Virus record (IMG/VR): IMGVR_UViG_3300009692_000020
Location: 445 to 64,444 of that record
DNA: 64,000 nt
From: a virus
Taxonomy: Duplodnaviria; Caudoviricetes
Direction: 5' to 3' (one strand)
Below are positions 39,092 to 59,000 of this stretch, piece by piece. The notes under the pieces are model-generated. The model made no database searches, was not told the origin of the DNA, and was given only the letters and a program-made list of their open reading frames with translations. Within the stretch, counting starts at the first letter, position 1, and each line of letters begins with the position of its first letter. Both the position numbers and the translations under genes were made by a program.

Positions 39092-40851
39092 TGGGTAAGC
39101 TGATTGATATTCGTCATCCCGAATATAAAGCCATGTATGACAAGTGGAAGAAGTGGCGTTACACATATGCCGGTGGCGACGATTTCATAGATCAGTATCT
39201 TAAATACTATTCCACAAGGGAAACGAATAACGATTTCCTTGTTAGGAAGGCTATTACCTATGTTCCGGCTTTCGCAAAAACTGCTATCGAGGACGTTAGG
39301 AAAGCCATATTCAGTCGAGCCAACGACATTCGTCGTACAAATGGTTCTGAATCATATCAGAAAGCCATAGCCGGATTGATTGGTGGAGTAGATGAACACG
39401 GTTCAAGCATGAATGGTTACATTGGCGAGAACGTATTAACTGAACTTCTTCCTATGGCTCGCGTAGGCATATACGTGGATATGCACAAGAACATCGGACC
39501 TACGATGGCTACCCTCGGAGATAAGCACCCATACATATACACATTCCCTACTGAGGATATTCTCTCTTGGCAGTATGGCGAAGATAACAAATTATCGGTT
39601 CTGCTTCTTCGTTGTCATGGTAATGACGTTGATGAACAGTGGGGACTTCCGGACGAAATAGAGATAACCTACCGATACTTAGTTAGGACACCGGCGGGCG
39701 TCTCCATTACCGAGTATGATGAAGCAGGAAACGAGATAAGCGGTTTTGATTTGAAAATCAAAGAAATACCATTTATCATACTGGAAACAAAGCAAGCATT
39801 GATGGCAGATATAGCCAATTATCAGATTGCTCTTCTTAATATTGCTTCTTCCGACATCAATTACATAACGAAATCAAATTTCCCGTTCTATACTGAACAG
39901 TATGATCCAAAAAGTGATATGATGGAGTACATCCGTAAGGCACAGACCGCATCAACTGCAGCGGTTAGCACTGGCGGATTAGGTGGGAATACTGCTCCAG
40001 TAGAAGGAACAACTCAAGAAGCTGATCAAGCTAAGGCAAAAGAAATCGTAACTGGTGCAGCACAAGGGCGTAAATATCCTGTCGGTTCAGAACGTCCGGG
40101 ATTCATACATCCTTCTCCCGAACCTCTAAAGGTTTCGATGGAGAAACAGGATGCTATGAAGAAAGAAATACGCGAACTCATCTCTCTGAATCTCAATAAT
40201 ATCAGACCTCGTATGGCATCAGCTGAAAGTAAGGAATTAGACAACGAAGGTCTCGTTAGCGGATTGGCTTATCTCGGTGTGATGCTTGAATCAACTGAAC
40301 GTCGCATAGCTGAACTGTGGCATATGTACGAGAATAAGCCTAATGACGTAACAGTAGCTTATCCTCGCCAGTTCACATTACAGACAGAAGCTGAACGTTC
40401 TGATGAAGCCATGAAGAAAGCTAAAGTTATGATTACTGTTCCAAGTAAGATATATCAGAAAGCCATAGCTAAGGATATTGCTCAACTTACTCTCGGGCAT
40501 AAAGCATCTCCTACCACTATGGACGAGATATTCGAGGAAATTGATTCAGCTGAGGTTATGAATACCGATCCGGAATTCATTATGAAGGCTGCAGAAGCAG
40601 GACTTGTTTCCAATGCTACGGCGTCGGAAACTATTGGTTTCCCAAAAGGCGAAGCAGCGAAAGCCTCGCAAGACCACGCAGAAAGACTTGCTCGTATACA
40701 AGCTGCTCAAGGCGATCCTAATTCGCAAGGTGGAAAGAAAGCCATGATGCAGATGGCTGACGGGACAATGGCTAAAGATATGAAAAAGATTTCCCAAGAT
40801 GGAAATATGAATCCAATTAATAATAAAAATAAGACAAGAGGTGCGTCATGA
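39091..40851 (+). CDS. Portal protein
   Basis: Follows TerL; RHPEY...W..W...Y.GG..FI..YL..Y..RE. Confidence 0.85.
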   Translation: MGKLIDIRHPEYKAMYDKWKKWRYTYAGGDDFIDQYLKYYSTRETNNDFLVRKAITYVPAFAKTAIEDVRKAIFSRANDIRRTNGSESYQKAIAGLIGGVDEHGSSMNGYIGENVLTELLPMARVGIYVDMHKNIGPTMATLGDKHPYIYTFPTEDILSWQYGEDNKLSVLLLRCHGNDVDEQWGLPDEIEITYRYLVRTPAGVSITEYDEAGNEISGFDLKIKEIPFIILETKQALMADIANYQIALLNIASSDINYITKSNFPFYTEQYDPKSDMMEYIRKAQTASTAAVSTGGLGGNTAPVEGTTQEADQAKAKEIVTGAAQGRKYPVGSERPGFIHPSPEPLKVSMEKQDAMKKEIRELISLNLNNIRPRMASAESKELDNEGLVSGLAYLGVMLESTERRIAELWHMYENKPNDVTVAYPRQFTLQTEAERSDEAMKKAKVMITVPSKIYQKAIAKDIAQLTLGHKASPTTMDEIFEEIDSAEVMNTDPEFIMKAAEAGLVSNATASETIGFPKGEAAKASQDHAERLARIQAAQGDPNSQGGKKAMMQMADGTMAKDMKKISQDGNMNPINNKNKTRGAS

Positions 40852-41162
40852 AGAAGGTATTCAAACCCGTGTACGATGGTCTACCGAGACCGTATGATGA
40901 AGGAAACATGCAGAGGAACGAAACTGGTGATAAGCGTGAAATCGTTATCATTGAGCCAGACGTTCTTAAAGAGATAACGGACACTACCGATCCTCTTTGC
41001 ATTTATACTTGTCGGGCTGCTTGTGGTTCTAATGTCAATGCAGCGGTATGGCAGATACAACGGTCAACAACTGTTGGTTCAGTAATCACAACGGAATGGG
41101 CAGACGGCGATGGTAAATTTGACAATATCGCTGCAAATCGTGCTCTCCTAACATATAAATAA
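40848..41162 (+). CDS. Small virion protein with FKPVYD leader
   Basis: MKKVFKPVYDG...; C-terminus AVWQIQR...EWADGDGKFDNIAANRALLTY. Confidence 0.7.
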   Translation: MKKVFKPVYDGLPRPYDEGNMQRNETGDKREIVIIEPDVLKEITDTTDPLCIYTCRAACGSNVNAAVWQIQRSTTVGSVITTEWADGDGKFDNIAANRALLTYK

Positions 41163-41173
41163 GGAGAACTAAC

Positions 41174-44059
41174 ATGACTCCAGTTGTAGACATTTTCTTA
41201 AAGAAACTTGGCATAAGTCTTGTATGTCATGACCATGCAGAGTTTGCATCACTGGCGAACTTCAAGGGATACTATGTAAATCCTGCAGCTTTGCCTACAC
41301 CTGGACAGGCGGGTTGGTTCGCAATCGTTGGCTCTACCGATACTATGTGGGTATGGGATACCGGAACTGCCACATGGCTTGATACGAGTATGCAATCGGG
41401 CGTACTATCCTTCGGACCTATGGGCGCACCTAGAATGGGTAACGTTTATCCTGCAGCCAATGATTATACTTGGGCGATGATTGATAAGACAACGTCGTCC
41501 ATCGCAGACATTGCTACGAGATCAGCCGGTGACCTTTCAAGCGGTAATCTCAATGTCGCACGTATGCCAGTTAGCGGAACTTGGAACGTAACTGGTGATT
41601 TGACAATCGAGAACGCATTAGCATCAGCAACAACTGTAAAACTTAATAGTACCAATGTAACTGCACAGGCTCTCGCGTTTCAGATGGTTAATACAGTTGC
41701 AACCGGTGTTGAGTTCTATTTAGGCGCAAGTGGTGTTGCCACTATTCGCAGAATAGGTGGATTGAATCTCATACAGATAAGTTCCGGAATAAGTTACAAT
41801 GGTCTTCTTTTCGGGTCCGGAGTAATTGATTTCAACTTCGGGCATCAAGATTTGGACTTCAACATAAGCGCAGCTACCGCAGGAATCAACGCTTATAAGT
41901 ATGATGCAGGACTTGATTTGCACACTTTCAGCACGTTCCCTGTCGGACCTTCAGCAGCACCAACAACGGATTATCAGTTTGCTAATAAGAAGTATGTTGA
42001 TGATGCAATAGTTCCCGAAAATCTTTGGGATCGCGCGACGACCGTTCTTAGCGCACATAATACTGGTGATACAATCGATCCGTTGGCTATGCCAGTTGGC
42101 GGAACATGGTCGACCGTTACGTCATCTCACAGAATGATTGGACCGAAAGATAATTCCACTTTCACATTCCTAACGCTCGAAGATACCGCAGCCACATTTA
42201 ATCATATTGGTATCATATTTGGTGCAGATAATCTTGGTGGTATAATCAATATCTATCGCGGTAACTCTTCCACTCAAGGAATAGTTATGAACGGTGGAAG
42301 TAGCACTTCCTTCTATAATGGCTCAAGTGGCGGTTTTGGAATAGGTACACTCGGGACATCTCAAGACAGATTGAAAGTTAAAGGTCGTACAAGTGATGAT
42401 CAAGTTGATGCTTTCCATGTAACAAATTCGTCTGATACTGACCTGTTTAGAGTCAGAAATGATGGACAAGTTACTGTTGCCGGAAATGTTGTATCGGTGG
42501 TCGGTCATAGCCATGCAACAAGTGATTTAATAAGTGGAAATCTTGATATCGCTCGTATGCCTCTCAGTGGTGATTGGGCACTCAATTCCACTCTCGATAT
42601 CTCCGGTGCAGTGGTCAGATTCATATATGGCGATATACAGGTAGCGGATAGCATACGTCACTATATGGCAGGAACTCCGGATACTAATACTAGATTGAAG
42701 TTCCAACGTGGTTTCATTCAGTTGGAAGCTAACGGTAAAGTTATTGCATCATTCGATGGTAACACTGCCGGTGCTTTTGCTAACTACTTCAATAAGGATG
42801 CCCAAGATATGGACTTCCTTATCTATAAGAAAACCTCTGGAATCGCATATAATTACGACGCGGGAACAGATGTTCATACATTCGGAACATTCCCAATCGG
42901 ACCTACTGCATCTCCCACTACTGACTATCAGCTTGTAAATAAGTTGTATGTTGATGGTCTAATCGCAGCTGCAAATGCTCTAGTGTACAAAGGTGTAATT
43001 GATTGTGCAGCTTCTCCTAATTATCCTGCAGCAGATTGTGGTCATCTGTATGTTGTTTCAGTAGCAGGAAAGATTGGTGGATCATCCGGTACAATAGTTG
43101 AAGTTGGTGATATGATGATTTGTAACACCGACGGAACTGCATCCGGCGATCAAGCTACTGTTGGAAGCAAATGGAATCTTGTTCAGCGCAATGTTGATAG
43201 CATAGTTAGCGGTCCTACAAGCGCAGTAGACGGAAACTTCGCATCATTTAATGGCGCAACAGGTTCTATACTTAAAGACAGTGGCTACTCGTTCAGTAGC
43301 TTCTCTCTTACCGGTCATACTCACGCGACAACAGATATAGTCAGTGGTAATATGGATGTCGCTCGCATGACACTTGGCGGTACTTGGTCAATCACTAGCA
43401 AACTTACTATTAGTGGACATTTTGTTGAAATCACTAATGGCTTTGCTAATCAGTTGTCGGTACTGGGCAGTGCATCTGCAGGACTTGCAGAATTGATTGT
43501 TTCATCAAACAGAGGTACTTCAAGAGGTACATTTATAAGAATGTGCGGAGCGACCTATGCGGGTTCGTCCTTTATTAAGGATCTTGCAGGTAACGCGATT
43601 GCAGAATCAGAAGCAGTAGTTCTTGGTAACACGAACGATGCCAACAAACCGATGTACTTTGCTACAAATGACCGCGCGGTAACTTGTATCTATAATAGTT
43701 GCTTCGGTGTTGGACTCTTCAACACTGCAACTAGACCTACTATCGGATTTGAAACACGCGGAGTGAACTCTGTATTCAATACCGGAGCGGGCGACTTTGA
43801 TTTCACAATCAAAAAGAACACTGCCGGTAATGCATACGCTTACGATGCCGGACTTGATTCACACGCATTTAACGGTGCAGCTTATACGCTCTACCGTAAC
43901 AGCGAGAATCAGCCTATTGCATCACGTAGGACACTTAGTGCAGCACCTACACCGACATCGACAGGTAAAGACGGTGAACGCGGTTACTATGGTGGCTATA
44001 ATTATATTTGGGTAGCAGACAATGTTGTTATCCGTCACGTAGTGGAAACAACTTGGTAA
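41174..44059 (+). CDS. Fibre-like repeat protein, 961 aa
   Basis: Three DxDF...AYxYDAGxDxH modules, three DLxSGNxxxARM modules and two ANKxYVD motifs. Confidence 0.6.
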   Translation: MTPVVDIFLKKLGISLVCHDHAEFASLANFKGYYVNPAALPTPGQAGWFAIVGSTDTMWVWDTGTATWLDTSMQSGVLSFGPMGAPRMGNVYPAANDYTWAMIDKTTSSIADIATRSAGDLSSGNLNVARMPVSGTWNVTGDLTIENALASATTVKLNSTNVTAQALAFQMVNTVATGVEFYLGASGVATIRRIGGLNLIQISSGISYNGLLFGSGVIDFNFGHQDLDFNISAATAGINAYKYDAGLDLHTFSTFPVGPSAAPTTDYQFANKKYVDDAIVPENLWDRATTVLSAHNTGDTIDPLAMPVGGTWSTVTSSHRMIGPKDNSTFTFLTLEDTAATFNHIGIIFGADNLGGIINIYRGNSSTQGIVMNGGSSTSFYNGSSGGFGIGTLGTSQDRLKVKGRTSDDQVDAFHVTNSSDTDLFRVRNDGQVTVAGNVVSVVGHSHATSDLISGNLDIARMPLSGDWALNSTLDISGAVVRFIYGDIQVADSIRHYMAGTPDTNTRLKFQRGFIQLEANGKVIASFDGNTAGAFANYFNKDAQDMDFLIYKKTSGIAYNYDAGTDVHTFGTFPIGPTASPTTDYQLVNKLYVDGLIAAANALVYKGVIDCAASPNYPAADCGHLYVVSVAGKIGGSSGTIVEVGDMMICNTDGTASGDQATVGSKWNLVQRNVDSIVSGPTSAVDGNFASFNGATGSILKDSGYSFSSFSLTGHTHATTDIVSGNMDVARMTLGGTWSITSKLTISGHFVEITNGFANQLSVLGSASAGLAELIVSSNRGTSRGTFIRMCGATYAGSSFIKDLAGNAIAESEAVVLGNTNDANKPMYFATNDRAVTCIYNSCFGVGLFNTATRPTIGFETRGVNSVFNTGAGDFDFTIKKNTAGNAYAYDAGLDSHAFNGAAYTLYRNSENQPIASRRTLSAAPTPTSTGKDGERGYYGGYNYIWVADNVVIRHVVETTW

Positions 44060-44068
44060 GGAACTAAT

Positions 44069-44488
44069 ATGAGCAACATCAAAGGATTAGTGGATGTAAC
44101 TACCGGACAAGAAGTTGATCCGGATGCTCGCTATCTTCAAAGTATAGTGGGATACAGATCAATGATAGATGTAAATAGTGTACCTGTTGTTATTTTAACA
44201 CCTAATACTATACATTTAGTTTTAAAAGCAACTTATCAAGGTCTTAAACTTCCCCAAACATGTGTTAAAGGAACTATATTTAAGGTAGTGGGTATGGGAG
44301 AAGGATTATGGGGTATTCAGCAGTTTGCAGGACAACAGATAATTATGGGAGATTATCCAACCACTGTTGGAACGAATGGAGCAATACAGGCTACATATAA
44401 ACGCGATACTGTGGATTTGCTTTGTGTTGTGGCAGATACTACATTTTTAGTAATAAATTCAACTGGTAACATATCGGTGATACAATGA
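44069..44488 (+). CDS. Fibre-associated protein
   Basis: N-terminus KGLVDVTTGQEV shared with 45492..47849. Confidence 0.55.
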   Translation: MSNIKGLVDVTTGQEVDPDARYLQSIVGYRSMIDVNSVPVVILTPNTIHLVLKATYQGLKLPQTCVKGTIFKVVGMGEGLWGIQQFAGQQIIMGDYPTTVGTNGAIQATYKRDTVDLLCVVADTTFLVINSTGNISVIQ

Positions 44489-45483
44489 TTAAAAATGATT
44501 CAAATAGTACTTTAAATTTTAGTATCTTAGGACATGGCGCTAAGGTCGCTAATCAGTGCATTTGGGGAAAAGCAAGTCTTTTCCTTGGAACATATGTTGG
44601 CGATTCAGCCGGTTCAATTCTTCAAACAGGACAAGATCCACATTTCATAGTTACTAAAGCCGATACTGCCGTGCAGGGTGTAATGGGAACTATATTAGGC
44701 GGATGCAAAGGTTCAGCCGTAGCCAACATACTTGGTGGATTTGGTGCAACATATAATGGAAATGAAATGAGATTGGGAACTCATGCATCAGTTAATACCA
44801 ATGGAGTAGATTATAAATTTTGGGGACTTTCAGCACATAATGGAAGAACTCTCACTAATATGCGTTATCAATCATTTTATTATGATGGTAATGGCTTAGC
44901 AAGGACATTAACTGGATTGGGAATAGATTTAACCACTAAATCAAAAGTAGTGGTTGTTATTAAAGGAGCGGGTGCACATCCTGCGATATTTAGGACATCT
45001 AATCATGCTGATTATTACTCTAGCTATTTTCTTGCAGCTACTGCTGATTTAACAACCGGCATAAGTGGTTTTACTTCGGATGGTATATCAATCAGCACTG
45101 GTACAATGGTAAATGCTGCCGGAGTTCGCTATTACGGATTTGTTATGTGTGAAGATACAGAACCTTCAGCAGAACTAATAGTTGGTTCTTATATAGGTGA
45201 TGTATCTAAATTACAGATTCCTGTTCCTCTTGAGAAAACAAGTATGTCTTTAGACCAAATGTTTATAATACCCAATGGAGCAAATCCATGTATGTTTCTT
45301 ACATATGGATTAGCTTATGTTTCGGCTTCTACAACGGAACCGGATCAGTGGATAGAATTGGATTGGATGAATAATAGTCTTCTGATTCCGGAATCAACTT
45401 TAATTAACGATGTAAATAACAAAGTTAATTTCGCAGCTATACTTAATCCATCAACTTATTCTAACCCTAAAATATTATCATAA
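44485..45483 (+). CDS. Fibre or minor structural protein
   Basis: Repeated G.Y.GDG/YIGD motifs. Confidence 0.5.
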   Translation: MIKNDSNSTLNFSILGHGAKVANQCIWGKASLFLGTYVGDSAGSILQTGQDPHFIVTKADTAVQGVMGTILGGCKGSAVANILGGFGATYNGNEMRLGTHASVNTNGVDYKFWGLSAHNGRTLTNMRYQSFYYDGNGLARTLTGLGIDLTTKSKVVVVIKGAGAHPAIFRTSNHADYYSSYFLAATADLTTGISGFTSDGISISTGTMVNAAGVRYYGFVMCEDTEPSAELIVGSYIGDVSKLQIPVPLEKTSMSLDQMFIIPNGANPCMFLTYGLAYVSASTTEPDQWIELDWMNNSLLIPESTLINDVNNKVNFAAILNPSTYSNPKILS

Positions 45484-45491
45484 GGTGCGTT

Positions 45492-47849
45492 ATGGCTAAT
45501 GAATTAAAAGGCTTAGTAAATATTACGACGGGAGCGCAAGTTGCTGATGCAAAAGCAATCTTCGCTTACTACGACGAAACATTGTTTAATATAAAAGCGG
45601 GCGCATCTTGCGGTTCTGCTTTGACAACTGGAATTGATAACATTTTGATTGGTAGGGGAACTGGTAACGCCCTCACTATTGGTTATCGTAATGTTTTGAT
45701 TGGTTCATATGCCGGTAACAAAATAGTTGAGAACTCGGATAATGTAGCGGTCGGTTACAGTGCATTAGGTAGTGCCGTTGATGCTTGGTACAACACTGCC
45801 ATTGGTGCTTGGGCATTGTATAAAGCTACTGGTTGGTCAAATGTAGCCGTCGGATACAGGGCAATGAGCGGTTATGTTGATCCGGTTACTGGTTCGGGCA
45901 ATATTGCTATGGGTAATGATTGCATGTATAATATCACTAGCGGTATGTACAATACCGGTATGGGTATGAACTGTTTACGTGCTTTGACAACTGGCTCTAG
46001 TAATGTTTGCTTAGGTCAAAACGCAGGATATGGTCTATCTACTGGAAACTCGAATACTCTCATAGGCTCACAAGCCGGACAGTATCTAAACGGCAGTAAC
46101 AATATAGCCGTAGGACCGAACGCTTTACAGGGCGGAACAAACAATAATCCCAGTGGTAATATAGCCATAGGTGTAGCTACTTTAGCATCAATTATTGATG
46201 GAAGTGGAAACGTCGGCATAGGTTACTCTACTTTGGGATTACTTACAAGCGGTACTCGCAATCTTGCATTGGCGAATCAATCCGGATATAATATCACTAC
46301 TGGTCATGACAATGTTTTACTCGGTCACTATGCCGGTCTATACATGGTCGATGCATACACGAACACCGCGATCGGTTCATGCGCTATGTATGGTGTTAAA
46401 GGTAGTCAGAATTTAGCTTTCGGTTACTGTGCGTTATACGGTTCAGCTACTTACGAACAGAATACTGGTGGCGGAAATATAGCCATAGGTAATGAATCAT
46501 TGTTCTATATGTCTACCGGAACATATAACATAGCCATCGGGCATCAAGCCGGTTCAAACGTTTCCACTTCACAAGGTAATATTCTTGTTGGTGCTGCAAC
46601 AGGTAGTGCTTTGACAACCGGCGGGATCAATGTTGTGATTGGTTATTCAGCAGCTAGAGCTATGGATACTAATTCGCATAACGTAGCGGTCGGTCCCAGT
46701 ACCATGTATTATATGAAGGGCGATGCTAATATAGCAATCGGTTCAGCAGCACTGTTTGGTTCGGCAACTCCTGCAAATAATACTGGTTCATTTAATGTGG
46801 TAGCCGGTTACCAAGCTATGAGTTTCAGTTCAACGGCATCATACAACATAGCTTTAGGTCGGTCTGCAGGATACGGATTAACTACTGGTCTCAATAATAC
46901 CTTCATCGGTTATAATACCGGTGTAGATACTACTGATTCTAATTACTCCGTTGCAATCGGATATTGGGCTATGAGATTGATGAACGGATCAAATAACGTA
47001 GCAATCGGTCAGCAAGCTATGGAAGGTGCTTACCCTAATATTGGAAATGTTGGATCAAACAACATAGCAATAGGAACTCTTGCACTTCAAACTATATACA
47101 CTGGATACAATAACGTGGCGGTCGGCGCTAACTGCTTACAATCACTAAGTACGGGATATGCTAATGTAGCTATCGGTATGGGATGCGCGGGTATGCTTAC
47201 TACTGCAACAAACTGTATTGCCATAGGTCAGTATGCTTTGAATCAGATGAGAGGCAGTTCCAATATTGGTATAGGTGTATCCTCGATTGACGGATCAAAC
47301 ACTCCTGCTAATAATACAGGTGTAGGTAATATTGGTATAGGACACGGAACATTAGGGTATCAAAGTGTTACATCCGGCTCTTTAAATGTAGCAATAGGTT
47401 ATATGTCTTTGAGAGCACTGACTACTGGTTCTGAAAACGTGGTAATAGGCGATCAATCACTTGGACTTCTGACTACTGGTAGTTATAATATAGTGCTTGG
47501 TAAGTATGCAGGACTTGCATTAACAACTCAATCATATAATACCTTCATAGGTAACTGTGCCGGTAAATATGAACTTGGTTCTAATCGTTTAATATTTGAT
47601 TGCATCGATAGAACCGACACTGCCGGTGAACAGGCTAAAGCATTACTTTACGGTATAATGGGTTCGGCAGTTTCAGATCAGACTCTGAAAATAAATGCTG
47701 ATTCATTAATCACTCCGTCTACTTCGTACCACTACTGGGGCGAACCTACCACAGACGGAAGTTGGAGATTCGGACGCAGTGGTAATAACTTCGTTATCGA
47801 ACGCAGAGAGTCTAGTGCGTGGGTAATGAAACAAACGATAGAGGCATAA
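45492..47849 (+). CDS. Beta-roll repeat protein (trimeric autotransporter head-like repeats)
   Basis: More than 20 repeats of N.AIG..AL...TTG..N.A.G. Confidence 0.75.
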   Translation: MANELKGLVNITTGAQVADAKAIFAYYDETLFNIKAGASCGSALTTGIDNILIGRGTGNALTIGYRNVLIGSYAGNKIVENSDNVAVGYSALGSAVDAWYNTAIGAWALYKATGWSNVAVGYRAMSGYVDPVTGSGNIAMGNDCMYNITSGMYNTGMGMNCLRALTTGSSNVCLGQNAGYGLSTGNSNTLIGSQAGQYLNGSNNIAVGPNALQGGTNNNPSGNIAIGVATLASIIDGSGNVGIGYSTLGLLTSGTRNLALANQSGYNITTGHDNVLLGHYAGLYMVDAYTNTAIGSCAMYGVKGSQNLAFGYCALYGSATYEQNTGGGNIAIGNESLFYMSTGTYNIAIGHQAGSNVSTSQGNILVGAATGSALTTGGINVVIGYSAARAMDTNSHNVAVGPSTMYYMKGDANIAIGSAALFGSATPANNTGSFNVVAGYQAMSFSSTASYNIALGRSAGYGLTTGLNNTFIGYNTGVDTTDSNYSVAIGYWAMRLMNGSNNVAIGQQAMEGAYPNIGNVGSNNIAIGTLALQTIYTGYNNVAVGANCLQSLSTGYANVAIGMGCAGMLTTATNCIAIGQYALNQMRGSSNIGIGVSSIDGSNTPANNTGVGNIGIGHGTLGYQSVTSGSLNVAIGYMSLRALTTGSENVVIGDQSLGLLTTGSYNIVLGKYAGLALTTQSYNTFIGNCAGKYELGSNRLIFDCIDRTDTAGEQAKALLYGIMGSAVSDQTLKINADSLITPSTSYHYWGEPTTDGSWRFGRSGNNFVIERRESSAWVMKQTIEA

Positions 47850-47850
47850 A

Positions 47851-48703: not shown

Positions 48704-49141
48704 ATGAAAAGGGTCGATCTGTTGAAGTTGGCAAGTGGTCTTATGGCGGTCGGTAACGTGGAAGGTTCAATGAAGTGGACCTACGCAATAAGCAAGAATC
48801 GCAAGAAGATCAAAGACGAAATCGAGACGATACAGGATGTTCAGAAGAAGATTGAGGACGGTCGCATCGAACTTTGCAAGGAACTTGCAGAAAAAGATGA
48901 CAAGGGAAACCCTGTTATGCTTGAAATGAAGGACGAGAAAGATGCAGTAATCAATACTGAGTTCTCAATCAAAGACAGAACGAAACTGGTGGAGTATCTG
49001 AACAAGAAGAACGAGGAATTCAAAAAGTTCCTTGATGAAGAAATCAAAGTCGAACTCCACAAGATGAAGTTGAGCGAGATACCGGACAAGGGAATGACAC
49101 CAAATATGCTTGAAGGCATAGAAGCAATAATCGAGGAATAA
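48704..49141 (+). CDS. Charged hypothetical protein (fibre chaperone-like)
   Basis: KWTYAISKNRKKI...RIELCKELAEKDDKGNP. Confidence 0.55.
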   Translation: MKRVDLLKLASGLMAVGNVEGSMKWTYAISKNRKKIKDEIETIQDVQKKIEDGRIELCKELAEKDDKGNPVMLEMKDEKDAVINTEFSIKDRTKLVEYLNKKNEEFKKFLDEEIKVELHKMKLSEIPDKGMTPNMLEGIEAIIEE

Positions 49142-49647
49142 TGAAAAGAGAACCTCTAATCAAGATTGTAGATGGCGTTCATGTGAAACATGTTCACTTT
49201 GCCGACGGTAAACGTGTTCATATTTCTAATGATCACACGGAGGGTTACTGGTTAATCTTCCGGAAGACCATCTACAATCTTGAAAAAGAGTTCAAATTCG
49301 TAATCGAGTTCAGTAACGGTAAGAAGATTGAAGTAACAATTAAGGAAGGTTTCAAGTTTGATTTGGCAAGCACACCTAAAGCCATTTGGTGGCTATATCC
49401 TCCGATGGATGACAGGTACGCTGCTCCTGCAACTGGACACGATGGTCTATATGGTGCAGAGATATTTGATCGCGCAATCAACGATGAGGTTTTATATATT
49501 GGTATGAAGGAATGTAAAGCGACTAAGTTTGATATATTCTCTTTTAAAGAAGCCGTTGGAACGTGGGGGTGGACGGCTTATTTAAAACACAATAAATCAA
49601 ATATTGAAAAGAATCGAACTTTTGTAGCAGTAAAGGAACTCCCATGA
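49141..49647 (+). CDS. DUF1353-like protein
   Basis: IKEGFKFDLASTP..IWW......YAAPATGHDGLY. Confidence 0.75.
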   Translation: MKREPLIKIVDGVHVKHVHFADGKRVHISNDHTEGYWLIFRKTIYNLEKEFKFVIEFSNGKKIEVTIKEGFKFDLASTPKAIWWLYPPMDDRYAAPATGHDGLYGAEIFDRAINDEVLYIGMKECKATKFDIFSFKEAVGTWGWTAYLKHNKSNIEKNRTFVAVKELP

Positions 49648-50042
49648 CAGATACTCAGACTATACATAAGATAGTAGATGAGTCAGTTGAAAAGGCATTT
49701 AAGGCACGTGAACAACAGTGCAAATTACATGCTGACAGATTGAATTCATTTGAGAACAATCAGAAAGACATGGTCAAGGAAATGCAGGAAACTAACAAGT
49801 TACTTGCGGTTGTAAATGACAACATCCAAGATATAAAAAAGAATAGAGATCAGCTTTTTGACAAATCAAATACTAATTCTAGATTGATAGCTGAGCATAC
49901 TATCAAAATAGACAATCAAGATAAGAAAATTGAAGGCGTTGAGGTTGAGATTAAGGAATCAAAAACTTTAAAATGGACGGCAGTAATTGCGATTACAACC
50001 GTAATAATAGAATTCTTAATTAACAGATTTGGAGGTAAATGA
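49644..50042 (+). CDS. Coiled-coil protein with C-terminal TM segment (holin- or haemolysin-like, tentative)
   Basis: C-terminal WTAVIAITTVIIEFLI. Confidence 0.45.
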   Translation: MTDTQTIHKIVDESVEKAFKAREQQCKLHADRLNSFENNQKDMVKEMQETNKLLAVVNDNIQDIKKNRDQLFDKSNTNSRLIAEHTIKIDNQDKKIEGVEVEIKESKTLKWTAVIAITTVIIEFLINRFGGK

Positions 50043-50452
50043 TGAATGGAAAAATGGGAATTATTTTGGTTCTGTGTCTTAGCGCTATCATTACTCTTAG
50101 CGGTTGCAGCTCTATGTCTGTAACGACATTTGACAAAGATGGAAAGCCTGTTGTTATTCAGAATTTCAAGGGCGATGCCATAGGAATGATTAGCATGAAT
50201 TTAAAAGAAAAACTTGTTTTGGTTACTACTGATGGCACATTCGTGGAATTGGTGGCTGAACCGCCCACGCAAGAGAACCCTACTGGTTCAATCAAAGCAA
50301 TTTTTGCTACTGGCAAGAAAGTATATTTGACTATACCCGAAGGATTTAACTGGGACAAGGCTAAGGAAGGTCTAGAGGCTCTTGCTAAGGTGATTGAAGC
50401 AACAAGTAGTAAGCCGGTTAGTGTAACACCTGCCGGTGTAGTAACTAAATAA
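50039..50452 (+). CDS. Lipoprotein
   Basis: Signal peptide with lipobox LSGC. Confidence 0.65.
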   Translation: MMNGKMGIILVLCLSAIITLSGCSSMSVTTFDKDGKPVVIQNFKGDAIGMISMNLKEKLVLVTTDGTFVELVAEPPTQENPTGSIKAIFATGKKVYLTIPEGFNWDKAKEGLEALAKVIEATSSKPVSVTPAGVVTK

Positions 50453-50681: not shown

Positions 50682-51128
50682 ATGACGCCTTATATAACAG
50701 TTGTAGATGCTCAAGCATACTTCTCAGAACGATTGCACACAGATGCTTGGGATGATGCATCTGACACCGATAAGTTGAAAGCACTTATCATGGCTACACG
50801 CGCCATCGATAAACTCAACTTCATTGGTGATAAGGCAGATCCGGATCAAGAATTGCAGTTTCCGCGTGGAGATGACGAGAATGTACCAACGGCGATTAAG
50901 GAAGCAACGTGCGAATTGGCGTTGCGACTATTAGACGACGTTGATGCAGATATGGAAATCGAAAATACGCGCATTAATAGTAATGGCATATCTTCGATTC
51001 AAAACACCTATGATGCTCGCGTAGTTCAAGACTATGTGTTAGCAGGAATTCCTAGCCCTACGGCTTGGCATCTGCTTGCACCGTACCTTCGTGATAGTCG
51101 CGAACTGAACATCACTAGGGCAACGTAA
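50682..51128 (+). CDS. Head-tail adaptor-like protein
   Basis: YITVVDAQAYF...AWD...KALIMATRAID...QELQFPR...IKEATCELAL. Confidence 0.75.
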   Translation: MTPYITVVDAQAYFSERLHTDAWDDASDTDKLKALIMATRAIDKLNFIGDKADPDQELQFPRGDDENVPTAIKEATCELALRLLDDVDADMEIENTRINSNGISSIQNTYDARVVQDYVLAGIPSPTAWHLLAPYLRDSRELNITRAT

Positions 51129-51156: not shown

Positions 51157-51954
51157 ATGAAGACGAGATTGTGGAATCGGGTTTTCAAACCAGTGTACGA
51201 CGATCCTAATGCCGATGCAGCAGCAAAAGCAGCAGCTGACAAAGCAGCAGCCGATGCAGCCGAGAAAGCAAAAGGTAAGACGTTTACACAGGAAGAACTC
51301 AATGCCATCGTAGCAAGAGAAAGAGCAGCTGACAAAGATGCGAAAGCAAAATTGATTCAGCAGCTTGAAGAAGCCAAGACGAAAGTAACGATGACCGCTT
51401 CTGAGAAGGAAGAGTACGAGAAGCAGTTGGAAGAACTTCGCAAGGCAACGATGTCCAAAGAGGAAATTGCCAATAGAGAGCGCAAGAAGCTCGAAGAGAA
51501 ATTGACTAAGGAACGTGATGACGCCCTTAGCCTTTCTAAGACTTGGCAGAAGCGTTTTGAAGATTCGACAATCATTAGAAATCTCATGGATGCAGCCATG
51601 ACTAATGAGGCATTTGCCCCGCAACAGGTTGTAGCTATACTATCTCCTAATGCGCGTGTTGTTGAAATGATGGACGAATCGGGAAAGCCATCCGGCAATT
51701 ACGATGTAGTCGTCAAATTCAATGACGTCGATTCCAAGAGTGGAAAGCCAATTCAGCTTGAACTTCCCTCTAACGAGGTAGTGAAGAGAATGAAGGAACT
51801 TTCCAATGTCTATGGAAATTTGTTTAAAAACGGTGTATCGGAAGGTATGGGAGGAAATAACGGAAAAGGCGGGAAGCCAGTTGATTTCTCCAAGATGACG
51901 CCGACCGAATACAAAGAACATAGAAAGAAAATGAAGGAGAAAGGCGAATTATGA
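51157..51954 (+). CDS. Capsid scaffolding protein
   Basis: KTFTQEELNAIV, coiled coil, C-terminus SKMTPTEYKEHRK; precedes the coat gene; SD before 51157. Confidence 0.8.
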   Translation: MKTRLWNRVFKPVYDDPNADAAAKAAADKAAADAAEKAKGKTFTQEELNAIVARERAADKDAKAKLIQQLEEAKTKVTMTASEKEEYEKQLEELRKATMSKEEIANRERKKLEEKLTKERDDALSLSKTWQKRFEDSTIIRNLMDAAMTNEAFAPQQVVAILSPNARVVEMMDESGKPSGNYDVVVKFNDVDSKSGKPIQLELPSNEVVKRMKELSNVYGNLFKNGVSEGMGGNNGKGGKPVDFSKMTPTEYKEHRKKMKEKGEL

Positions 51955-53348
51955 AAAAGTTTTTGAAGATTTTTCGTCCTGTTTATGACAACTCCGTCGA
52001 TGCTCTGATTCCCGAGAAGTGGGCACTCGAAGGTCTTGTTCTTCTGCAGGAAAATATGGTGCTCGGTAACCTTGTCAATCGTAACTACAAGAACGAAATC
52101 GCAGATTACGGACAGGTAGTGAATATTGACAAGCCCGCAGCTTTCACCGCGAAACGTAAGGGAACAAATGATGACGTTACTGTTCAGAACGCCAATGCGA
52201 CCACTCAGCCTGTCGCTCTGAATCAGCACCTTCACACCACGTTCCTTATCCGTGATTCTCAGATGACGATGGCTTTCAAGGACCTCGTTGCTTACTTCCT
52301 GCGCCCTGCGATTCAGAGTATCGCTTCCGGTGCAGACAAGGCTATTGCGGGATTTATCCCTCAGTTCATAGCAAACAACGCCGGTAACCTTGACGGACTC
52401 ACTGGTAACAATTCCGTTTCCAACATTCTTTCAATCAGAAAGAAGATGAACGACAACAAAGTTCCTCTTATGGGAAGGAATTTCCTTACCACGACCGCAA
52501 CGGAAGCCACGCTTCTCGGTCTCGAACTCTTTACTGCTGCTGACAAGGTTGGCGATCAAGGTACTGCTCTTCGTGAAGCATCTCTCGGGCGCAAGCTGGG
52601 ATTTGATTTCTTCATGGGACAGAACACACCTTACGTTCAGACTGGTCTGACGCAGAGAGTTCTCGGCGGTGAAATCAACAACGCAAGCGGTTACGCAATC
52701 GGTTCTACCACACTTGTGGTCGACGGTTTCAGTGCTGCAATACTTGCAGGTTCGTTCCTTACGATTGAAGGATCAATGTATCCTTACGTTGTATCGAGCA
52801 CTGTTGGTGGCGCAACACCGACTCAGATCGTGCTTGTTTCCGGACTTCGTGATGCAGTGGTCGACAATGCTGACATTGTCATCTACACACCTGTTCGCGT
52901 TGACCTTGGCGCAGGCTATGCAGACGGATATGTGAAGGAAATCCATATTGATGGATTCACATCTTCTCCGCAGATCGGACAGATACTTCGCTCGGCAGCC
53001 GGTGAGATATACACCATCATGGAAATATCTAACAACACTGGTACTGAAGCTGATGTTCTGCTCAACCGTCCTCTTGCAGGTGCGCTCGCTGATGACGCAA
53101 TCCTCGGAGTCGGACCTGGCGGTTCTTACAACTTCGCGTTCACACGTGATGCACTCGCTCTCGTGAATCGTCCTCTCGCTCTTCCTATGGGTAACCTCGC
53201 GGTTGCTTCCGTACAGGAAGATAACGGACTTTCACTGCGCGTTACCATCACTTATGATGGCGTGAAACAGGGACATCTTGTAACGGTCGACATGCTGATG
53301 GGTGTCGCGGTTCTCGATGCAGCACAGGGAGCAGTACTGCTTGCTTAA
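51951..53348 (+). CDS. Major capsid protein (P22 coat-like)
   Basis: LIPEKWA..GL..LQENMVLGNLVNRNY; GFDFFMGQN; NFAFTRDALALVNRPL; VTVDML.GV..LD. Confidence 0.85.
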   Translation: MKKFLKIFRPVYDNSVDALIPEKWALEGLVLLQENMVLGNLVNRNYKNEIADYGQVVNIDKPAAFTAKRKGTNDDVTVQNANATTQPVALNQHLHTTFLIRDSQMTMAFKDLVAYFLRPAIQSIASGADKAIAGFIPQFIANNAGNLDGLTGNNSVSNILSIRKKMNDNKVPLMGRNFLTTTATEATLLGLELFTAADKVGDQGTALREASLGRKLGFDFFMGQNTPYVQTGLTQRVLGGEINNASGYAIGSTTLVVDGFSAAILAGSFLTIEGSMYPYVVSSTVGGATPTQIVLVSGLRDAVVDNADIVIYTPVRVDLGAGYADGYVKEIHIDGFTSSPQIGQILRSAAGEIYTIMEISNNTGTEADVLLNRPLAGALADDAILGVGPGGSYNFAFTRDALALVNRPLALPMGNLAVASVQEDNGLSLRVTITYDGVKQGHLVTVDMLMGVAVLDAAQGAVLLA

Positions 53349-53350
53349 TC

Positions 53351-53833
53351 ATGATTACCTGTTATAACAAACACATGATTCGTAAATCATACTACGACCT
53401 GCGTAAAAACCACGCAGTAGTAGTAAATTGGCTTCATCTTGCCAGTGAGACAATCAATGTCGAAACTGGCAAGATGACCAACGTCTATGCCGACACAAAG
53501 GTCAAGAAGGCAGTTCTCCTACCAATCAAAATGGATAGGGTACTAAAGGTATTTAATGGTCAATTCGCCTATGGCGGATACTACGATACCAATACCCGAC
53601 TACTGATGGTTGAACAGAAGAACTTCCCTAAGGATTGGCGTGGCGAATTCGACGCAAATGATCGAGTAGTAATCAATGGAAAGCGGTATACTATCGCCAA
53701 CTGCGAGAACTATGAGAATACGACTCTGTGGCTTGTTACGATAGTAAACGTGAAAGGCACAGAAGCTGATAACGTGATTTCTCAATCTTTAACACAAAAC
53801 GCAGGACTTAATGATGTTGGAATCAATGCCTAA
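53351..53833 (+). CDS. Head closure-like protein
   Basis: Position after coat; DRVVINGKRYTI. Confidence 0.55.
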   Translation: MITCYNKHMIRKSYYDLRKNHAVVVNWLHLASETINVETGKMTNVYADTKVKKAVLLPIKMDRVLKVFNGQFAYGGYYDTNTRLLMVEQKNFPKDWRGEFDANDRVVINGKRYTIANCENYENTTLWLVTIVNVKGTEADNVISQSLTQNAGLNDVGINA

Positions 53834-54278
53834 ATGGATTTTGGCGTCCGTTGCCAAGCATTTCAGTGACCGTAAAGGTTCACTTGTGATGTATCTTGAA
53901 GGTCAGAAGCGCAATACGAATAAGTCGCAAGACTATTTTGAATTGCGAATGAATGGTCCGGATAGACGCGACATCGCTAAAAACTATTACGGCTATGATA
54001 TCGTCATTAACGTACTTGTTCAATCTTTGTATAATGACAAAGATGCATATCGTGAAATTAAGACTTGCGGTCTTGTGGCAAAGATGTTTGAATCGTCGAT
54101 TCGTATTTATAAATTCGGTGACGAAATTGGAGACGATCGTAATGTATTAGTGGGATGCATATCCTTGCAGGGAATTGTCGAGACCAACAGGTTTGGACGG
54201 CAAGCACCTTCAATAGATGTGAATACTTCCGAAGTACAAGGTCGCTATTCAATGGAACTCACAATTAACGAGGAGTGA
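53811..54278 (+). CDS. Tail terminator-like protein
   Basis: Position before the tail tube gene; YFELRMNGP. Confidence 0.5.
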   Translation: MMLESMPKWILASVAKHFSDRKGSLVMYLEGQKRNTNKSQDYFELRMNGPDRRDIAKNYYGYDIVINVLVQSLYNDKDAYREIKTCGLVAKMFESSIRIYKFGDEIGDDRNVLVGCISLQGIVETNRFGRQAPSIDVNTSEVQGRYSMELTINEE

Positions 54279-54781
54279 TTGAAATGAAAGTTGATATTAA
54301 AAAATCAACGATTGCCTTCAAGGATGGTACTACTCCGACACCTAACGTTCTTCTTGTGAAGATCGGTGACGGAAATATCACCTTCAAGGAATCAAAACCG
54401 AGGACCTACGAACTGGACAAGGGACTCCTTGACACAGTTCGCGATGGTGATCAGGTTCCAGTTGATGTAACTCTTGATTTCCTGTGGGAGTGGCTGAAAG
54501 CCGACACAGGGCTTCCTCCGACACCGGTGGATGTTCTCAAGAAACGTGGTAATGCTTCGGCATGGGTAACGGCTTCTTCCGATCCTTGCGAACCCTATTC
54601 GCTTGATTTGGAAATCGTTATCGATCCGGATTGCGCTGACGGCTCAAAGAAAGAAGTTATTCTTCTTTCTGACTTCCGTTATGAGGAACTGAACTATGAC
54701 CTTAAAGCAGGTCAGATTTCAGTTACCGGCAAGTGCAACATCACGGAAGCGACGATAACTCGCGTCACATCAACAACGTAA
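54275..54781 (+). CDS. Major tail (tube) protein
   Basis: Position; followed by a terminator, chaperone and tape measure. Confidence 0.65.
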   Translation: MIEMKVDIKKSTIAFKDGTTPTPNVLLVKIGDGNITFKESKPRTYELDKGLLDTVRDGDQVPVDVTLDFLWEWLKADTGLPPTPVDVLKKRGNASAWVTASSDPCEPYSLDLEIVIDPDCADGSKKEVILLSDFRYEELNYDLKAGQISVTGKCNITEATITRVTSTT

Positions 54782-54792
54782 CAATGCAACAA

Positions 54793-54828
54793 GTGGCGGA
54801 GTGATTGCAAAATCATTCCGCCACCTTT
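54793..54828 (+). terminator. Hairpin after the tail tube gene
   Basis: gtggcggagtgatt-GCAA-aatcattccgccac. Confidence 0.7.
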
Positions 54829-54857
54829 CCTAACAATAAATTGCGGAGGGTATCGAG

Positions 54858-55489
54858 ATGAAAGTTAATGGTAAGAAGATTGATGGTCCGAGCGAAGTAG
54901 TGATTCCTGTCATACGCGCAAGCGGTGATATCTATTTCAAAGCTAAAGCAGTTCTTAATTTTGAAACTTTTAACGCACTGTGTCCTGTACCTAAGCCACC
55001 TATGATGCAGAAACCCGGCGAAGATGCAGTAGCAGTTCTCAATGATGAAAAGTATCTTACGAAACTTGGAGATTTCACCCGTAAGAGAACGGCTTACATG
55101 ATTATCCAATCACTGTCAGCCACTGAGAACCTAGAATGGGAAACAGTTAAGATTGACGATTCATCGACTTGGCTCAACTACGAAACCGAATTGAAGAACG
55201 CAGGGCTGAGCGATATCGAAATAGGACGTTTAATCAATGGTGTACTTGAAGCCAACGGATTGGACGATCAGAAAGTTGAAGAGGCTAAGAAACGTTTTTT
55301 AGCTACGCAACAGGTAAAGGTCTAAGTCCTCTTTACCCAAGTGGTCGAACTGGTGAATATGTTATTTGGCGCATCTGTGAAAGATGGCATATTCAACCCA
55401 AGGACTTCTATGAATTGGATTGTTGGTCTCAAGCAAAATACATTGCTTACGAGAACATAAGGGAATACGAAGAATCATGCCATCTGTAA
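54858..55489 (+). CDS. Tail assembly chaperone pair: G 54858..55325 and GT via -1 frameshift to 55489
   Basis: In-frame slippery T TTT TTA at 55295-55301; the -1 frame is open for about 60 codons (...WRICERWHIQPKDF...) to TAA 55487-55489. Confidence 0.8.
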
Positions 55490-56058
55490 AGTTCAAAGTT
55501 AGATTTAAGACAATTTCCTTCGATAAGGAAAAATTCACATCTGACTATATGAATGGCTTGAAGGAATTAACAAAGAAAGCAGCTAGGGCGTTTGCTCTAG
55601 CTGCTTCTAACCGAGTTCATGTTGATACTGGAATGGCTAGGTCAACTTTCCTAGGAAAAGTCGAGACTTTCGAAGGTGGAGTTTCTGATGCAAACGAATA
55701 TTTAGGATTAAAAGATTCTCCTGCTTCAATCAATGTCAGTGGTGCTATTCAGAGAACTAGAAAAGATGCTGATAAGGCTAAGTATTGGAGGAAAGGTTCA
55801 ATGTTTCCAGGAATTAGGGGAACATACATTAGGACTCCCGAAGCCGGTGCAGAGAGAGGATTGTTTATGTTTCAGATTATTGGATCAAAAATAAGTTTTC
55901 TATTTTTCCCCTCTGTAAGACATTATCTGTATTGGGAAAATAAGTGGCGCAGTATGGATATAGGGCGTAAAGCGTTCAGTGCTTATATCCAAGCTAATAA
56001 GAAAAAGTATATTCCTAAACTAAACAAATATTATAAGATGTCATACAGGAGTGCGTAA
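55477..56058 (+). CDS. Tail completion / neck-like protein
   Basis: 3' part of track ORF 55420..56058; VHVDTGMARSTF. Confidence 0.55.
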   Translation: MPSVKFKVRFKTISFDKEKFTSDYMNGLKELTKKAARAFALAASNRVHVDTGMARSTFLGKVETFEGGVSDANEYLGLKDSPASINVSGAIQRTRKDADKAKYWRKGSMFPGIRGTYIRTPEAGAERGLFMFQIIGSKISFLFFPSVRHYLYWENKWRSMDIGRKAFSAYIQANKKKYIPKLNKYYKMSYRSA

Positions 56059-59000
56059 ATGAATATCTTTAAGCCAGTATATGATGATACAATCGGAGCA
56101 ATAGACTTCGAGGATGGTGGATTCTCTGCTAAAATAGCAAAGGTTACACTTGAACTTGATGCGTTTGGTAATGCTACTGCTAAAGTAGGCGAGAAAGTTA
56201 AGTATGCAGCAGATGATTTTGAGAAGTTATTTAATATAAAAGCAGAAGTATTTGAACGCACACTGGCTAACGGCGAAAAGATTCTAGATACCCGATTCCG
56301 CGGAATAGGTGGTAAGTTTGTAAGTCTTAATAAGGTTGTAGATAGAGAAGTAGCAAAACTAAATGCTAGTATTGACGCACTTGCCAAAGGTGGTGCAGGA
56401 ATATCATCACCCGGACCTGCGGTTAGACCTAAGGGAACTGAAACTGCTACTCCATATGATAAATTATTCACATTGAATGAGCAAGAGATGATTAACGCTG
56501 AAAAGATTGCCGCGTTAAATAGATTTGAAAACGCTAAGCGATTGCACAATCAGTTACTTTCAGAAGAAGAATCATTTCAGAGTCGTAATTTAGCTATACT
56601 TAATTCCTTCTTAGCTATAAAGGCAGAGAAACAGAAAGCAGCAGAAGCAGCAGAAATAGCTCGTCAAGCTAAATTTGCTCAGATGCAACTTGATTACCAA
56701 GCCAAGTTATCTGCTGATATGGCTGCTAGAAATGTAACTATGGGTACTGTACCTGTAATGGGTAAGCCAACACCTACTAAGTACAATTTAGTATCAACGG
56801 GTGCAGGTCAGTGGGCGGGTGAAGCAGTTGCGGTCGGTGGCTTAAACAAACAGTATATGGAGATGAAGGTCGCTACTGATACTGTTGGTAGGGGTTTTAC
56901 TGCTAAGAACGCAAAACTGTCGGCACAAACTATTGCCACTAACAGAGAACGTGATGCGATTAAGGGCGCACAGATGGCTATGGTTGATTCAGCAACCACT
57001 TTGAAACGAGTAGATGCAGGACTTGCTACACATACAGAGGGCGTTGCTAGAGCGCGAGCACAGTGGGCATATTGGGGACGTTTCTTACTTACGCAATCAA
57101 TTCATAAAGCAGTGTATGATATAATCAATGCCACCCGAACAGGACTCAAAGAGATGGCTACACTGCAAGTTAAGATTTCAGAAATACGTACTATTGGACA
57201 AGAAGCACCACTGCCTTTTGGAACTTGGGAAGCTGAGATAAGAAGATTATCTGATGTGTATGGCATGAGCATGACAGATGTTGCCGAAGGTATTTATCAG
57301 ACTATTTCAAACCAAGTAGCTTTCGGGGCTAATGCCACTAGATTTATGGCAGACAGTATGGTCTTCGCACGTACTACTGTTTCATCAACTGCCGATGCCG
57401 TTAATCTTTTATCTTCTTCACTTAATGCTTTTGGTAAGACATCAGATCAAACTAATGATTCGGCTGCATCACTATTCAAGACTATTGAAATTGGTCGATT
57501 GAGAGCAAGTGATATTGCTAACAGTTATGGTAACGTAGCCGTAACTGCTGCAGAACTCGGAGTGAAAGAGGACGAGTTAGGTGCTATGATGGCAATCATG
57601 ACCTTGCAAGGTAAGAAGGTCGATGTTGCTATGACACAGATTAGAAATATCATGATGAAGATGCTGAAACCAACTGAGGAACTCGGTAAGTATTTCAAGC
57701 AACTTGGTTATGATTCGGGCGAAGCTGCAATATCCGCTATGGGATTGCCCAATCTTATTAGACAGATAAATGAAGAAGCATCTAAAGCCGGTAAAGGTAC
57801 TCCTTGGCTTGCTAGATTGTTTGGAGATATACGTCCCATACAAGGTATCATATCTCTTACTGGCGATCAGATGGCAAAGTTCGATAGTATACTTGAACAG
57901 TATAACACTAAGCAATCACAGTATTTTAAAGCTACTCACATCTCTATTGAATCAACTGGTAAGTTACTTCAAATGGAGATGAACAAAGTTCATAATTACT
58001 TTGTTCAGACTTTAGGTGAAGGCGCATTGAATATTATTAAGGGATTCATCAGTGATGTAGATGATGGATTAAAAGGACTCGAGATTTCTAAGACATTAGG
58101 CATTAAGCCTGTTAATGATTTCGTTGGTGCTATTGAAGCAGCCGGACGAGTCTTAGAGTTCCTTTCTGCATTGTATATTGGTTGGCGAGTTAGAGTCAAT
58201 ATTGTAAATTATGAATTGGCTCAACAGACTCTTGCATTGGAAGCTAATACTATTGCCAAGACTAAAAATGCAGTAGCTACCGAAGCTAATACCGCAGCTA
58301 TGGCTAAGTTCAATCCTTTGATTGGTGGTGCTATATTTGTTGGCGCGACCGCATTAGTGTACGCTTACATGGAAGCATGGAAATGGGTTATAAAGGTGAA
58401 TGCAGAGTATGAAGGATTGCTTTCACTGGATAAGGTATATGAAAAACAGTTAGCTGAACGACACGCTAAAACTATTGCACAGATAGAAGAACGTGTTAAT
58501 GCTTTTAAGAAAGAAGCAGAAGCATCAAGACAAGTGATGGAACAAGGCGTTGCCGTTAAGATAGCCGGATTGAATAGTGAAGTTGATGCACTTAATGCGA
58601 CTATATCTAATAATGTTAAATTGATAACGGACTATGTTAGTGGTTCAATCAACTCCATAGCTAAGTTAATTAATTTCCTTGATTCAAGAATCACTGAAAC
58701 AAGTAACACTATTAAGAGTCTTACTGCTAGTATAGCCGGTATGCAATCCGGTTCTTCGACATTATCCTATTACACTGGCTTGGTGGATAAGATAGGTGTA
58801 ACAAATGATGCCCAAATCAAACTCAATAGGACATATCAACGTTATCTTGATTTAGTCAAAGCCGGTGCAAAGTTTGCTAACACCCAAGACTTGCGTGTAC
58901 TTGGACAGGGTGACTTATTCAAGCGTAAGACTACTACTGCTACTGGTTCGGCAGTTAAAGGTGTTGATGTAAATGGTGATGCTTTCACTAAGCAGAAGAA

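Follow-up and report, generated by a model that had tools for sequence, protein, structure and literature searches.

In phage T4 several unrelated virion proteins carry an N-terminal capsid-targeting tag that is trimmed during maturation. The tag addresses its carriers to the core of the head, and the S77 serine protease gp21 makes its cuts inside the prohead, at Leu/Ile-x-Glu. To our knowledge, if such head-restricted prohead proteases are set aside, the cases in which virion proteins share a removable leader come essentially from one system, that of staphylococcal phages that use the host protease Prp. In phage 80alpha the coat and scaffold carry a leader that is cut at Phe↓Ala by Prp, the L27-processing protease of the host (PMC5744158). 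The same motif is found on non-homologous proteins of other phages, including the major tail protein of another staphylococcal phage, while within 80alpha the cleavage itself is dispensable and an intact N-terminus of the scaffold is essential (PMC5744158). The extension of L27 has the motif MLxx(D/N)LQ(F/L)F↓A(S/H)KK, and the long form of L27 is reported for Firmicutes and a few other phyla (PMC9405229). Here we analyze a leader of another type in an uncultured tailed phage, together with the enzyme that might remove it. The window that we have studied comprises 64,000 nucleotides (nt), bases 445-64444 of the IMG/VR virus record IMGVR_UViG_3300009692_000020, which is 64,444 base pairs (bp) long with direct terminal repeats. 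Four virion proteins encoded within it share the N-terminal sequence F[KR]PVYD.

The six-frame translation of the window contains F[KR]PVYD four times and no more, always on the plus strand, at 40860, 51184, 51972 and 56068. From the residue frequencies ~0.002 copies would be expected by chance, and 200 shuffles gave none. Each copy lies 1-14 residues after an ATG, and 5-10 nt upstream of each ATG there is a ribosome-binding site of the GGAG or GAGG type. The first carrier is a 104-amino-acid (aa) protein encoded directly behind the portal gene (40848..41162, plus strand, as are all features given below in this paragraph), whose leader takes up ten codons and ends ...FKPVYD (40848..40877). It has no Pfam or PHROG match and belongs to a small family of eight clusters. 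The second is the head scaffolding protein (51157..51954; PHROG 1793, 2303 and 172), encoded directly upstream of the coat gene and beginning with a leader of 15 codons (51157..51201). The third is the coat itself, a P22-type major capsid protein (51951..53348; PF11651, 1.7e-27; PHROG 283, 2.6e-53) with a leader of 13 codons (51951..51989). The last is the tail tape measure protein of 1769 aa (56059..61368; PF10145 and PHROG tape-measure families), in which the leader occupies nine codons (56059..56085). Thus the original prediction, that four unrelated virion proteins share this N-terminus, holds against the chance expectation, and the identities that it gave to the genes hold too.

The 18-nt stretches encoding the motif have just 10-16 bases in common, with their differences at synonymous positions; most pairs share 10-13 of the 18 bases, and two of the four stretches share 16. 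Conservation is therefore at the peptide level, as had been proposed. An element G-[GA]-GTGCGT is found at 26830, 40840, 45484, 51137 and 56049, just 5′ of the start codons at 26846, 40848, 45492, 51157 and 56059, in front of genes with and without a leader. An extended ribosome-binding site is one possibility for it, an element of late genes another.

We scored the window with a matrix made from 100-odd independent coat leaders of relatives, from which the window and its two nearest relatives were excluded. The four sites rank first to fourth among 28,050 positions in the open reading frames (ORFs) of the window, with 17.5-20.0 bits, and the next site has 12.3. It had been suggested that weaker variants of the leader are present, namely LVCHD at 41174, ITCYN at 53351 and NVFD at 3471/3501. 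These are not supported, as they score at background (ranks 196-569), and the stretch at 53351 is an ordinary conserved N-terminus in an ortholog. An ORF at 31420-32589 with a weak match to PD-(D/E)XK nucleases reads I-F-K-P-I-Y-G at 31453-31473, 11 residues from its start. On the independent matrix this near-copy has 3.7 bits and rank 104, and it is probably due to chance.

The phage belongs to a large clade, with >560 IMG/VR contigs that have the coat family, and the coat family itself comprises >710 clusters at E <1e-10. In essentially all of ~110 related coat clusters there is an N-terminal extension of 9-27 residues (median 14), behind which lies the conserved coat start N-D-x-D-A-[LF]-I-P-E-x-W-A. 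Among 109 cluster representatives the consensus of the leader is a basic residue, a hydrophobic residue, F/W (64%), any residue, P/L/T, V (53%) and Y/F (83%). The last position of the core is Gly in 7%, as in ...W-V-G-A and ...W-Y-G, and it is followed by A/D/E (85%) and then by Asn (90%). The cores vary widely among related phages, with W-Y-G, W-V-G, P-V-Y, L-A-Y and P-A-H all represented, and the high-G+C relatives that we examined (G012 and G013) also bear such leaders.

It had been proposed beforehand that the N-termini of related phages be searched for the motif. We compared the seven-residue core of each coat with every ORF of its own locus, using 66 non-redundant related loci. In other ORFs the coat core has 71 matches no more than 40 residues behind the first start codon, against 14 at all other positions, for 68,398 and 318,264 positions scanned, respectively (odds ratio 23.6, p ~1e-39). 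The leader thus recurs in relatives, 24-fold over internal positions. At a strict threshold the scaffold carries the core of the coat in 34 of 53 cases, and most of the others are similar by eye; the scaffolds of relatives begin with the leader version of their own genome, and behind it there is a linker that is acidic and rich in Gly or Pro. At the same threshold the core is carried by a ~175-aa protein encoded upstream of the chaperone and tape-measure genes in 22 of 50 cases. This protein is the ortholog of the window gene at 54275..54781 (plus strand), which we read as a putative tail tube protein from the order of the genes together with a language-model lead to the tail tube of Phi812. 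The tape measure carries the core in 4 of 36 (those of loci L057, L059 and L121 bear the leader of their own genome, and most others are without one), and the portal in 2 of 23, plus that of genome G015, with leaders seen on the portals of a few relatives (L074, L110 and G015). In the window the putative tube and the portal (39091..40851, plus strand; PHROG 145) are leaderless. The proposal that the leader extends to components of the tail is borne out by the tape measure in the window, and by the putative tube and the tape measure in relatives.

Leader cores diverge strongly between genomes and agree within each of them. In locus L059 the coat, scaffold, tube and tape measure all have R-x-R-L-W-Y-G; in L060 three proteins have Q-I-K-W-[IV]-G; and in L101 the coat and tube have an identical core of seven residues. 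Such concerted change in unrelated proteins of one genome requires a common reader that is specific to that genome. These sequence comparisons give good support to the view that the leader is a portable module for recognition, co-varying within each genome.

The extent of the leader is marked out by proteins that lack it. Distant coats (34-38% identity) begin M-A-N-T-F-L-T-P, aligned to the residues just behind the motif, and the coat of a close relative (L092) that has no leader begins M-A-N-D-L-D-A-F at the same boundary. This agrees with the earlier observation that a mature-looking start follows directly behind the motif in the coat. Tubes with a leader read ...[YF]-A-Q-I-D-L-K, and their leaderless orthologs, that of the window included, begin M-A-Q-I-D-L-K or a close variant. 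The portals and tape measures exhibit the same boundary pattern as the tubes. In the family of the 104-aa protein the leader is kept in seven of eight members, and the most distant one begins M-S-G-L, aligned to the residue after the aromatic. In the tube, a clean indel of exactly nine codons (27 nt) between Met1 and Ala2 separates loci L079 and L084 from L080, which is closely related to them, and the end of the upstream gene and the ribosome-binding site are identical. From the sharp boundary, the gain and loss as a unit and the matching within genomes we conclude that this is a portable, co-evolving N-terminal module. Since orthologous tubes, tape measures and portals work both tagged and untagged, the tag does not belong to the final structure, and its presence on tail proteins argues against an address tag for the interior of the capsid. 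A Sec signal, which has a hydrophobic core of ~7-15 residues and behind it an Ala-x-Ala site, was also considered. The leaders in the window have 9-16 residues, of which 3-5 are hydrophobic, with no A-x-A, and by inspection they are not of the Sec type.

Conservation reaches its maximum just before the boundary, with the aromatic (83%), then A/D/E, then the Asn that is present in 90% of the coats, and this suggests the pattern expected of a cleavage site. Two registers for the cut would fit, either directly after the aromatic (or Gly) that ends the core, or one residue later. We favor the first with modest confidence, for three reasons. The residue after the aromatic is kept in the leaderless forms, where it lies behind a Met removable by methionine aminopeptidase; all four leaders of L059 would then end in one register (W-Y-G); and one homolog of the 104-aa protein is without the residue after the aromatic. 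The second register would place the aromatic at P2, which is typical for papain-fold enzymes, and in the few genomes of the Gly type it would involve Gly-Ala, typical for C39 enzymes.

From these alignments the leader is likely to be cleaved. In the mechanism that we favor, F[KR]PVYD would be the core of a short (9-16 residues), basic-then-hydrophobic N-terminal leader, attached as a portable module to the proteins that build the particle. Coat and scaffold would nearly always be tagged, and the tube, tape measure, portal or small virion proteins would be so in some members. One common, genome-specific partner would read all the leaders of a genome, and each leader would be cut at the conserved aromatic (Tyr/Phe, rarely Gly) or one residue after it, leaving a mature N-terminus equal to that of the leaderless orthologs. 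The likely cutter would be a C39-like peptidase of the phage itself, encoded at 24277-24783, acting on free or assembling subunits of head and tail. For this reading as a whole, a portable leader removed proteolytically by the C39-like peptidase of the phage, we consider the chances to be even.

The most serious rival, which we hold to be clearly less probable, is that the leader acts as a docking tag, kept or transient, for a common phage factor such as a chaperone or a protein of assembly control, or that the leaders associate with each other to nucleate or time assembly. Co-variation within a genome demands only a common binding partner, and not a protease, and in 80alpha the uncleaved N-terminus of the scaffold is essential and a common chaperone has been proposed (PMC5744158). 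However, the orthologous tube, tape-measure and portal proteins work untagged, and the tag is gained and lost by clean indels. A short hydrophobic extension on the tube or on the N-arms of the coat would need to be tolerated in the lattice, and conservation is strongest at the junction, as it is at cleavage sites. Moreover, the carriers of head and tail assemble separately, and a single nucleation contact between them is hard to picture.

Cleavage of the leader by a phage enzyme requires a candidate, and the window encodes a stand-alone, C39-like cysteine peptidase of predicted papain fold (24277..24783, plus strand). C39 peptidases remove short N-terminal leaders. The residues Gln6, Cys12, His110 and Asp123 are invariant among close relatives, in the order Gln-x5-Cys...His...Asp, and in 141 diverse relatives the conservation of the Cys, His and Asp is ≥90%, with GHDG and R-G-x-H-x-x-E motifs conserved as well. 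A whole-library profile search with the peptidase finds 973 cluster representatives at E <1e-10, and among the best 150 matches listed nearly all have ~140-180 aa, that is, stand-alone size. No solved relative of the profile was found by sequence. The model calculated from a deep alignment has a predicted local distance difference test (pLDDT) score of 93, and the solved structure nearest to this predicted fold is LahT150 with its leader (6mpz_A; Z 12.2, root-mean-square deviation 2.9 over 120 residues). The peptidase domains of ComA and PCAT1 come next, tied with pseudomurein endoisopeptidase and staphopain. Among viral proteins the best match is one of a Bacillus phage that is named as a C39 domain protein; Bacillus phage vB_BcoS-136 gives no match to PF03412.

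The peptidase gene is present in 23 of 25 large contigs of the clade. These are the window, five relatives (G001, G002, G012, G013 and G015) and, among another 19 large contigs whose coats have a leader, 17; the two that are without it are fragments that are ~50% complete. It is also present in all eight of the repeat-bounded or complete clade genomes that we examined. This is the sole protease recognized in the phage genome. A search of the whole genome gave no match to Prp (PF04327), nor any at E up to 1 to the prohead proteases S77, S78/U35, ClpP and S49 (PF03420, PF04586, PF00574 and PF01343), and this is in line with the original observation that no prohead protease gene lies near the head genes. 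No transporter domain was recognized in the ORFs scanned, and the peptidase is not fused to an ATP-binding cassette (ABC) exporter. On circumstantial grounds, and from sequence and modeling, the C39-like peptidase, which had been suggested in the original prediction, provides the best available hypothesis for the cutting enzyme.

A number of points weigh against this assignment, or against removal as the purpose of the leader. The peptidase matches no Pfam family at E up to 1, and so has no C39 match by sequence. It is a core gene of the clade, which leaves its link to the leader circumstantial, and it is encoded in the replication module, away from the late genes. Small papain-fold proteins are common in phages, where they have other roles. 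Most of the leaders end with Y/F followed by A/D/E, without the double-glycine site of C39 enzymes, and in PhiJL001, whose gp45 is a weak fold match, no shared leader was found. In a partial Mantel test with coat divergence controlled, leader divergence does follow peptidase divergence, but weakly (r 0.18, p ~0.045), and some of the leader registers are noisy. Five complete phages whose coats are leaderless lack the peptidase; we considered this as specific evidence, and rejected it. The DNA polymerase and the 879-aa replication protein of the present phage are absent from them too, and the contrast is therefore one between two clades. A correspondence of two peptidase paralogs with two leader classes was also rejected, as a complete relative of 112 kilobases (kb) (G029) shows one leader type only. 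Finally, in 80alpha cleavage is dispensable and it is the intact scaffold N-terminus that matters; a shared leader need not therefore act through its removal. Co-folding of the peptidase (141-row alignment) with residues 1-32 of the coat gave 0.27, below the mark, and this counts neither for nor against binding.

Some further features of the peptidase genes should be recorded. The fifth-best leader-like site in the window, K-S-F-K-P-F-Y-S (12.3-14.2 bits; 24532-24555), lies within the candidate peptidase gene itself, and may be due to chance or be a self-recognition or autoprocessing site specific to a subclade. A conserved internal pseudo-substrate did not hold for the family as a whole, as similar stretches are found at this place in close relatives only, and in the model the stretch is folded with confidence. 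G029 (loci L155-L160) has two copies of the peptidase, at 46881-47345 and 68011-68487, and there the leader was found on scaffold and coat only. In G015 (loci L083 and L048-L050) two flavors of leader occur in one genome in which one peptidase gene was found; scaffold and portal have the core ...I-W-x-x-x-Y-[EQ]-G, and coat and tube ...S-V-W-x-x-x-x-A. In several relatives the peptidase gene lies directly behind a gene with an N-terminus that by eye is like those of NYN/LabA-type nucleases (G001, 12036-12545; G015, 3594-4283); in the window the gene before it is VRR-NUC-like (23927-24280).

A further alternative is that the host provides the protease that removes the leader, either one like Prp or another, and that a host protein with a similar extension is its normal substrate, with the phage peptidase employed otherwise. 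This has a direct precedent in 80alpha, and the cut that we place after the aromatic would resemble the Phe↓Ala site of Prp. The phage peptidase lies in the early or replication module, and the evidence from co-occurrence is unspecific. We nevertheless think it unlikely. The leader motif is unlike that of the L27 extension (PMC9405229), which it does not match, in agreement with the earlier proposal that this is a different leader. The wide variation of the leader core among related phages fits a phage-borne partner better than it does a conserved, essential enzyme of the host, and the G+C content of the clade, which ranges from 40% to >60%, implies that the hosts are varied. The weakest alternative sees the shared N-terminus as an effect of expression alone, be it a translation-initiation cassette that was copied or an N-terminus that boosts the translation of late genes, with no role for the peptide. 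In its favor, late proteins of high abundance carry the leader, 16 of 18 bases are the same in two of the four coding stretches, and an element of the GGTGCGT type precedes several starts. We consider it very improbable because the codons differ synonymously with 10-13 of 18 bases shared for most pairs, the upstream element also precedes leaderless genes, the motif lies anywhere from 1 to 14 residues behind the start, and it is the peptide and not the DNA that is conserved across hundreds of genomes of differing base composition.

The window represents a complete 64.4-kb siphophage of a Gram-negative host, a member of a large uncultured clade, and has a G+C content of 40%. It is classed as a siphophage because a sheath gene is absent, and its host as Gram-negative because the lysis block at 48704-50452 has a lipoprotein spanin. 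No prophage relatives were found among 185,579 species genomes, and no tRNA genes were found in the phage genome. In a collection of cultured phages the coat has matches of ≤24% identity only, and the peptidase is without any match. The large terminase is encoded at 37412-39091, and the head-tail adaptor at 50682-51128. The lysis block, which comprises a holin-like gene, the lipoprotein spanin and a DUF1353 protein, sits between tail-fiber-like genes and the head genes. No endolysin is recognizable in the genome of the window; two relatives (G001 and G002) have genes with N-termini that by eye resemble a muramidase and an NlpC/P60-type hydrolase. Three genes of the window encode ParB-like proteins (PF02195; 14656-15657, 19108-20010 and 33962-34879), two of them with an additional ParB helix-turn-helix domain. 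Neither ParA nor an integrase was recognized in the window, and the layout with three ParB-like genes is repeated in a 61.6-kb relative. Next to the tail genes lie glycosyltransferases, one with an MptE-like fusion, and a Dam-type N6-adenine methyltransferase (6150-7553, 8403-9068 and 10766-11653), which hints at modification of DNA or of a surface.

A full-text search of the literature found no description of this leader system. In its logic it is the same as that of the staphylococcal leaders, now in a very large uncultured clade of phages with Gram-negative hosts. The motif here is a different one, which co-varies between the unrelated proteins of each genome and reaches the putative tail tube, the tape measure and the portal. 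We think it possible, at somewhat under even chances, that this is a new protease system in a widespread uncultured clade of tailed phages, in which a small C39-like virion leader peptidase would strip a portable, genome-specific leader from the head proteins, tube, tape measure and portal. A single soluble enzyme would then license the assembly of heads and of tails alike, and the tag could move freely to further virion proteins. Should the C39-like enzyme be the cutter, the maturation proteases of phages would gain a new family. About a thousand clusters of small orphan peptidase sequences would then receive a function, and the matched pairs of tag and enzyme could be used as orthogonal cleavage modules. 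These results raise the question of the purpose of the leader, which could be timing, folding or the blocking of premature polymerization, and of whether leader peptidases can be encoded by phages themselves.

It is instructive to compare this leader with the systems that resemble it most. With T4 it shares a short N-terminal tag common to several unrelated virion proteins. Yet here tail proteins are tagged, no S77 gene was found and the motif is different. Because tail proteins bear the tag and a prohead protease was not found, this is not capsid targeting of the T4 type. With the C39 peptidases LahT150, ComA and PCAT1, the nearest solved folds to the model (Z 11.5-12.2), the predicted enzyme shares a domain of ~150 residues and an order of catalytic residues that starts within the first 12-17. 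It differs in being stand-alone, without fusion to an ABC exporter and without a Pfam C39 match. Its presumed substrates would be cytoplasmic virion proteins rather than exported peptides, and most of the leaders end with an aromatic plus A/D/E rather than Gly-Gly, with Gly-Ala or Tyr-Gly in a few genomes.

The closest likeness is to 80alpha, and the analogy drawn in the original prediction is apt, since there too the motif is found on non-homologous proteins, a major tail protein among them (PMC5744158). In both systems a leader that is common to the non-homologous coat and scaffold precedes the mature start, and a tail protein is tagged in related phages. In both, a prohead protease is not encoded, and the cut that we propose would lie beside an aromatic residue. 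The differences begin with the motif, which here is a basic residue, F/W, any residue, P/L/T, V, Y/F and A/D/E, and not the L27-type ...LQFF↓A. In addition, the host here is Gram-negative, the coat is of the P22 type, and the tag is variable between genomes and is also carried by the tape measure and portal. Lastly, no Prp gene was found in this phage, and in place of the host Prp (family C108) the candidate is a phage-encoded enzyme of predicted papain fold, resembling the C39 peptidases.

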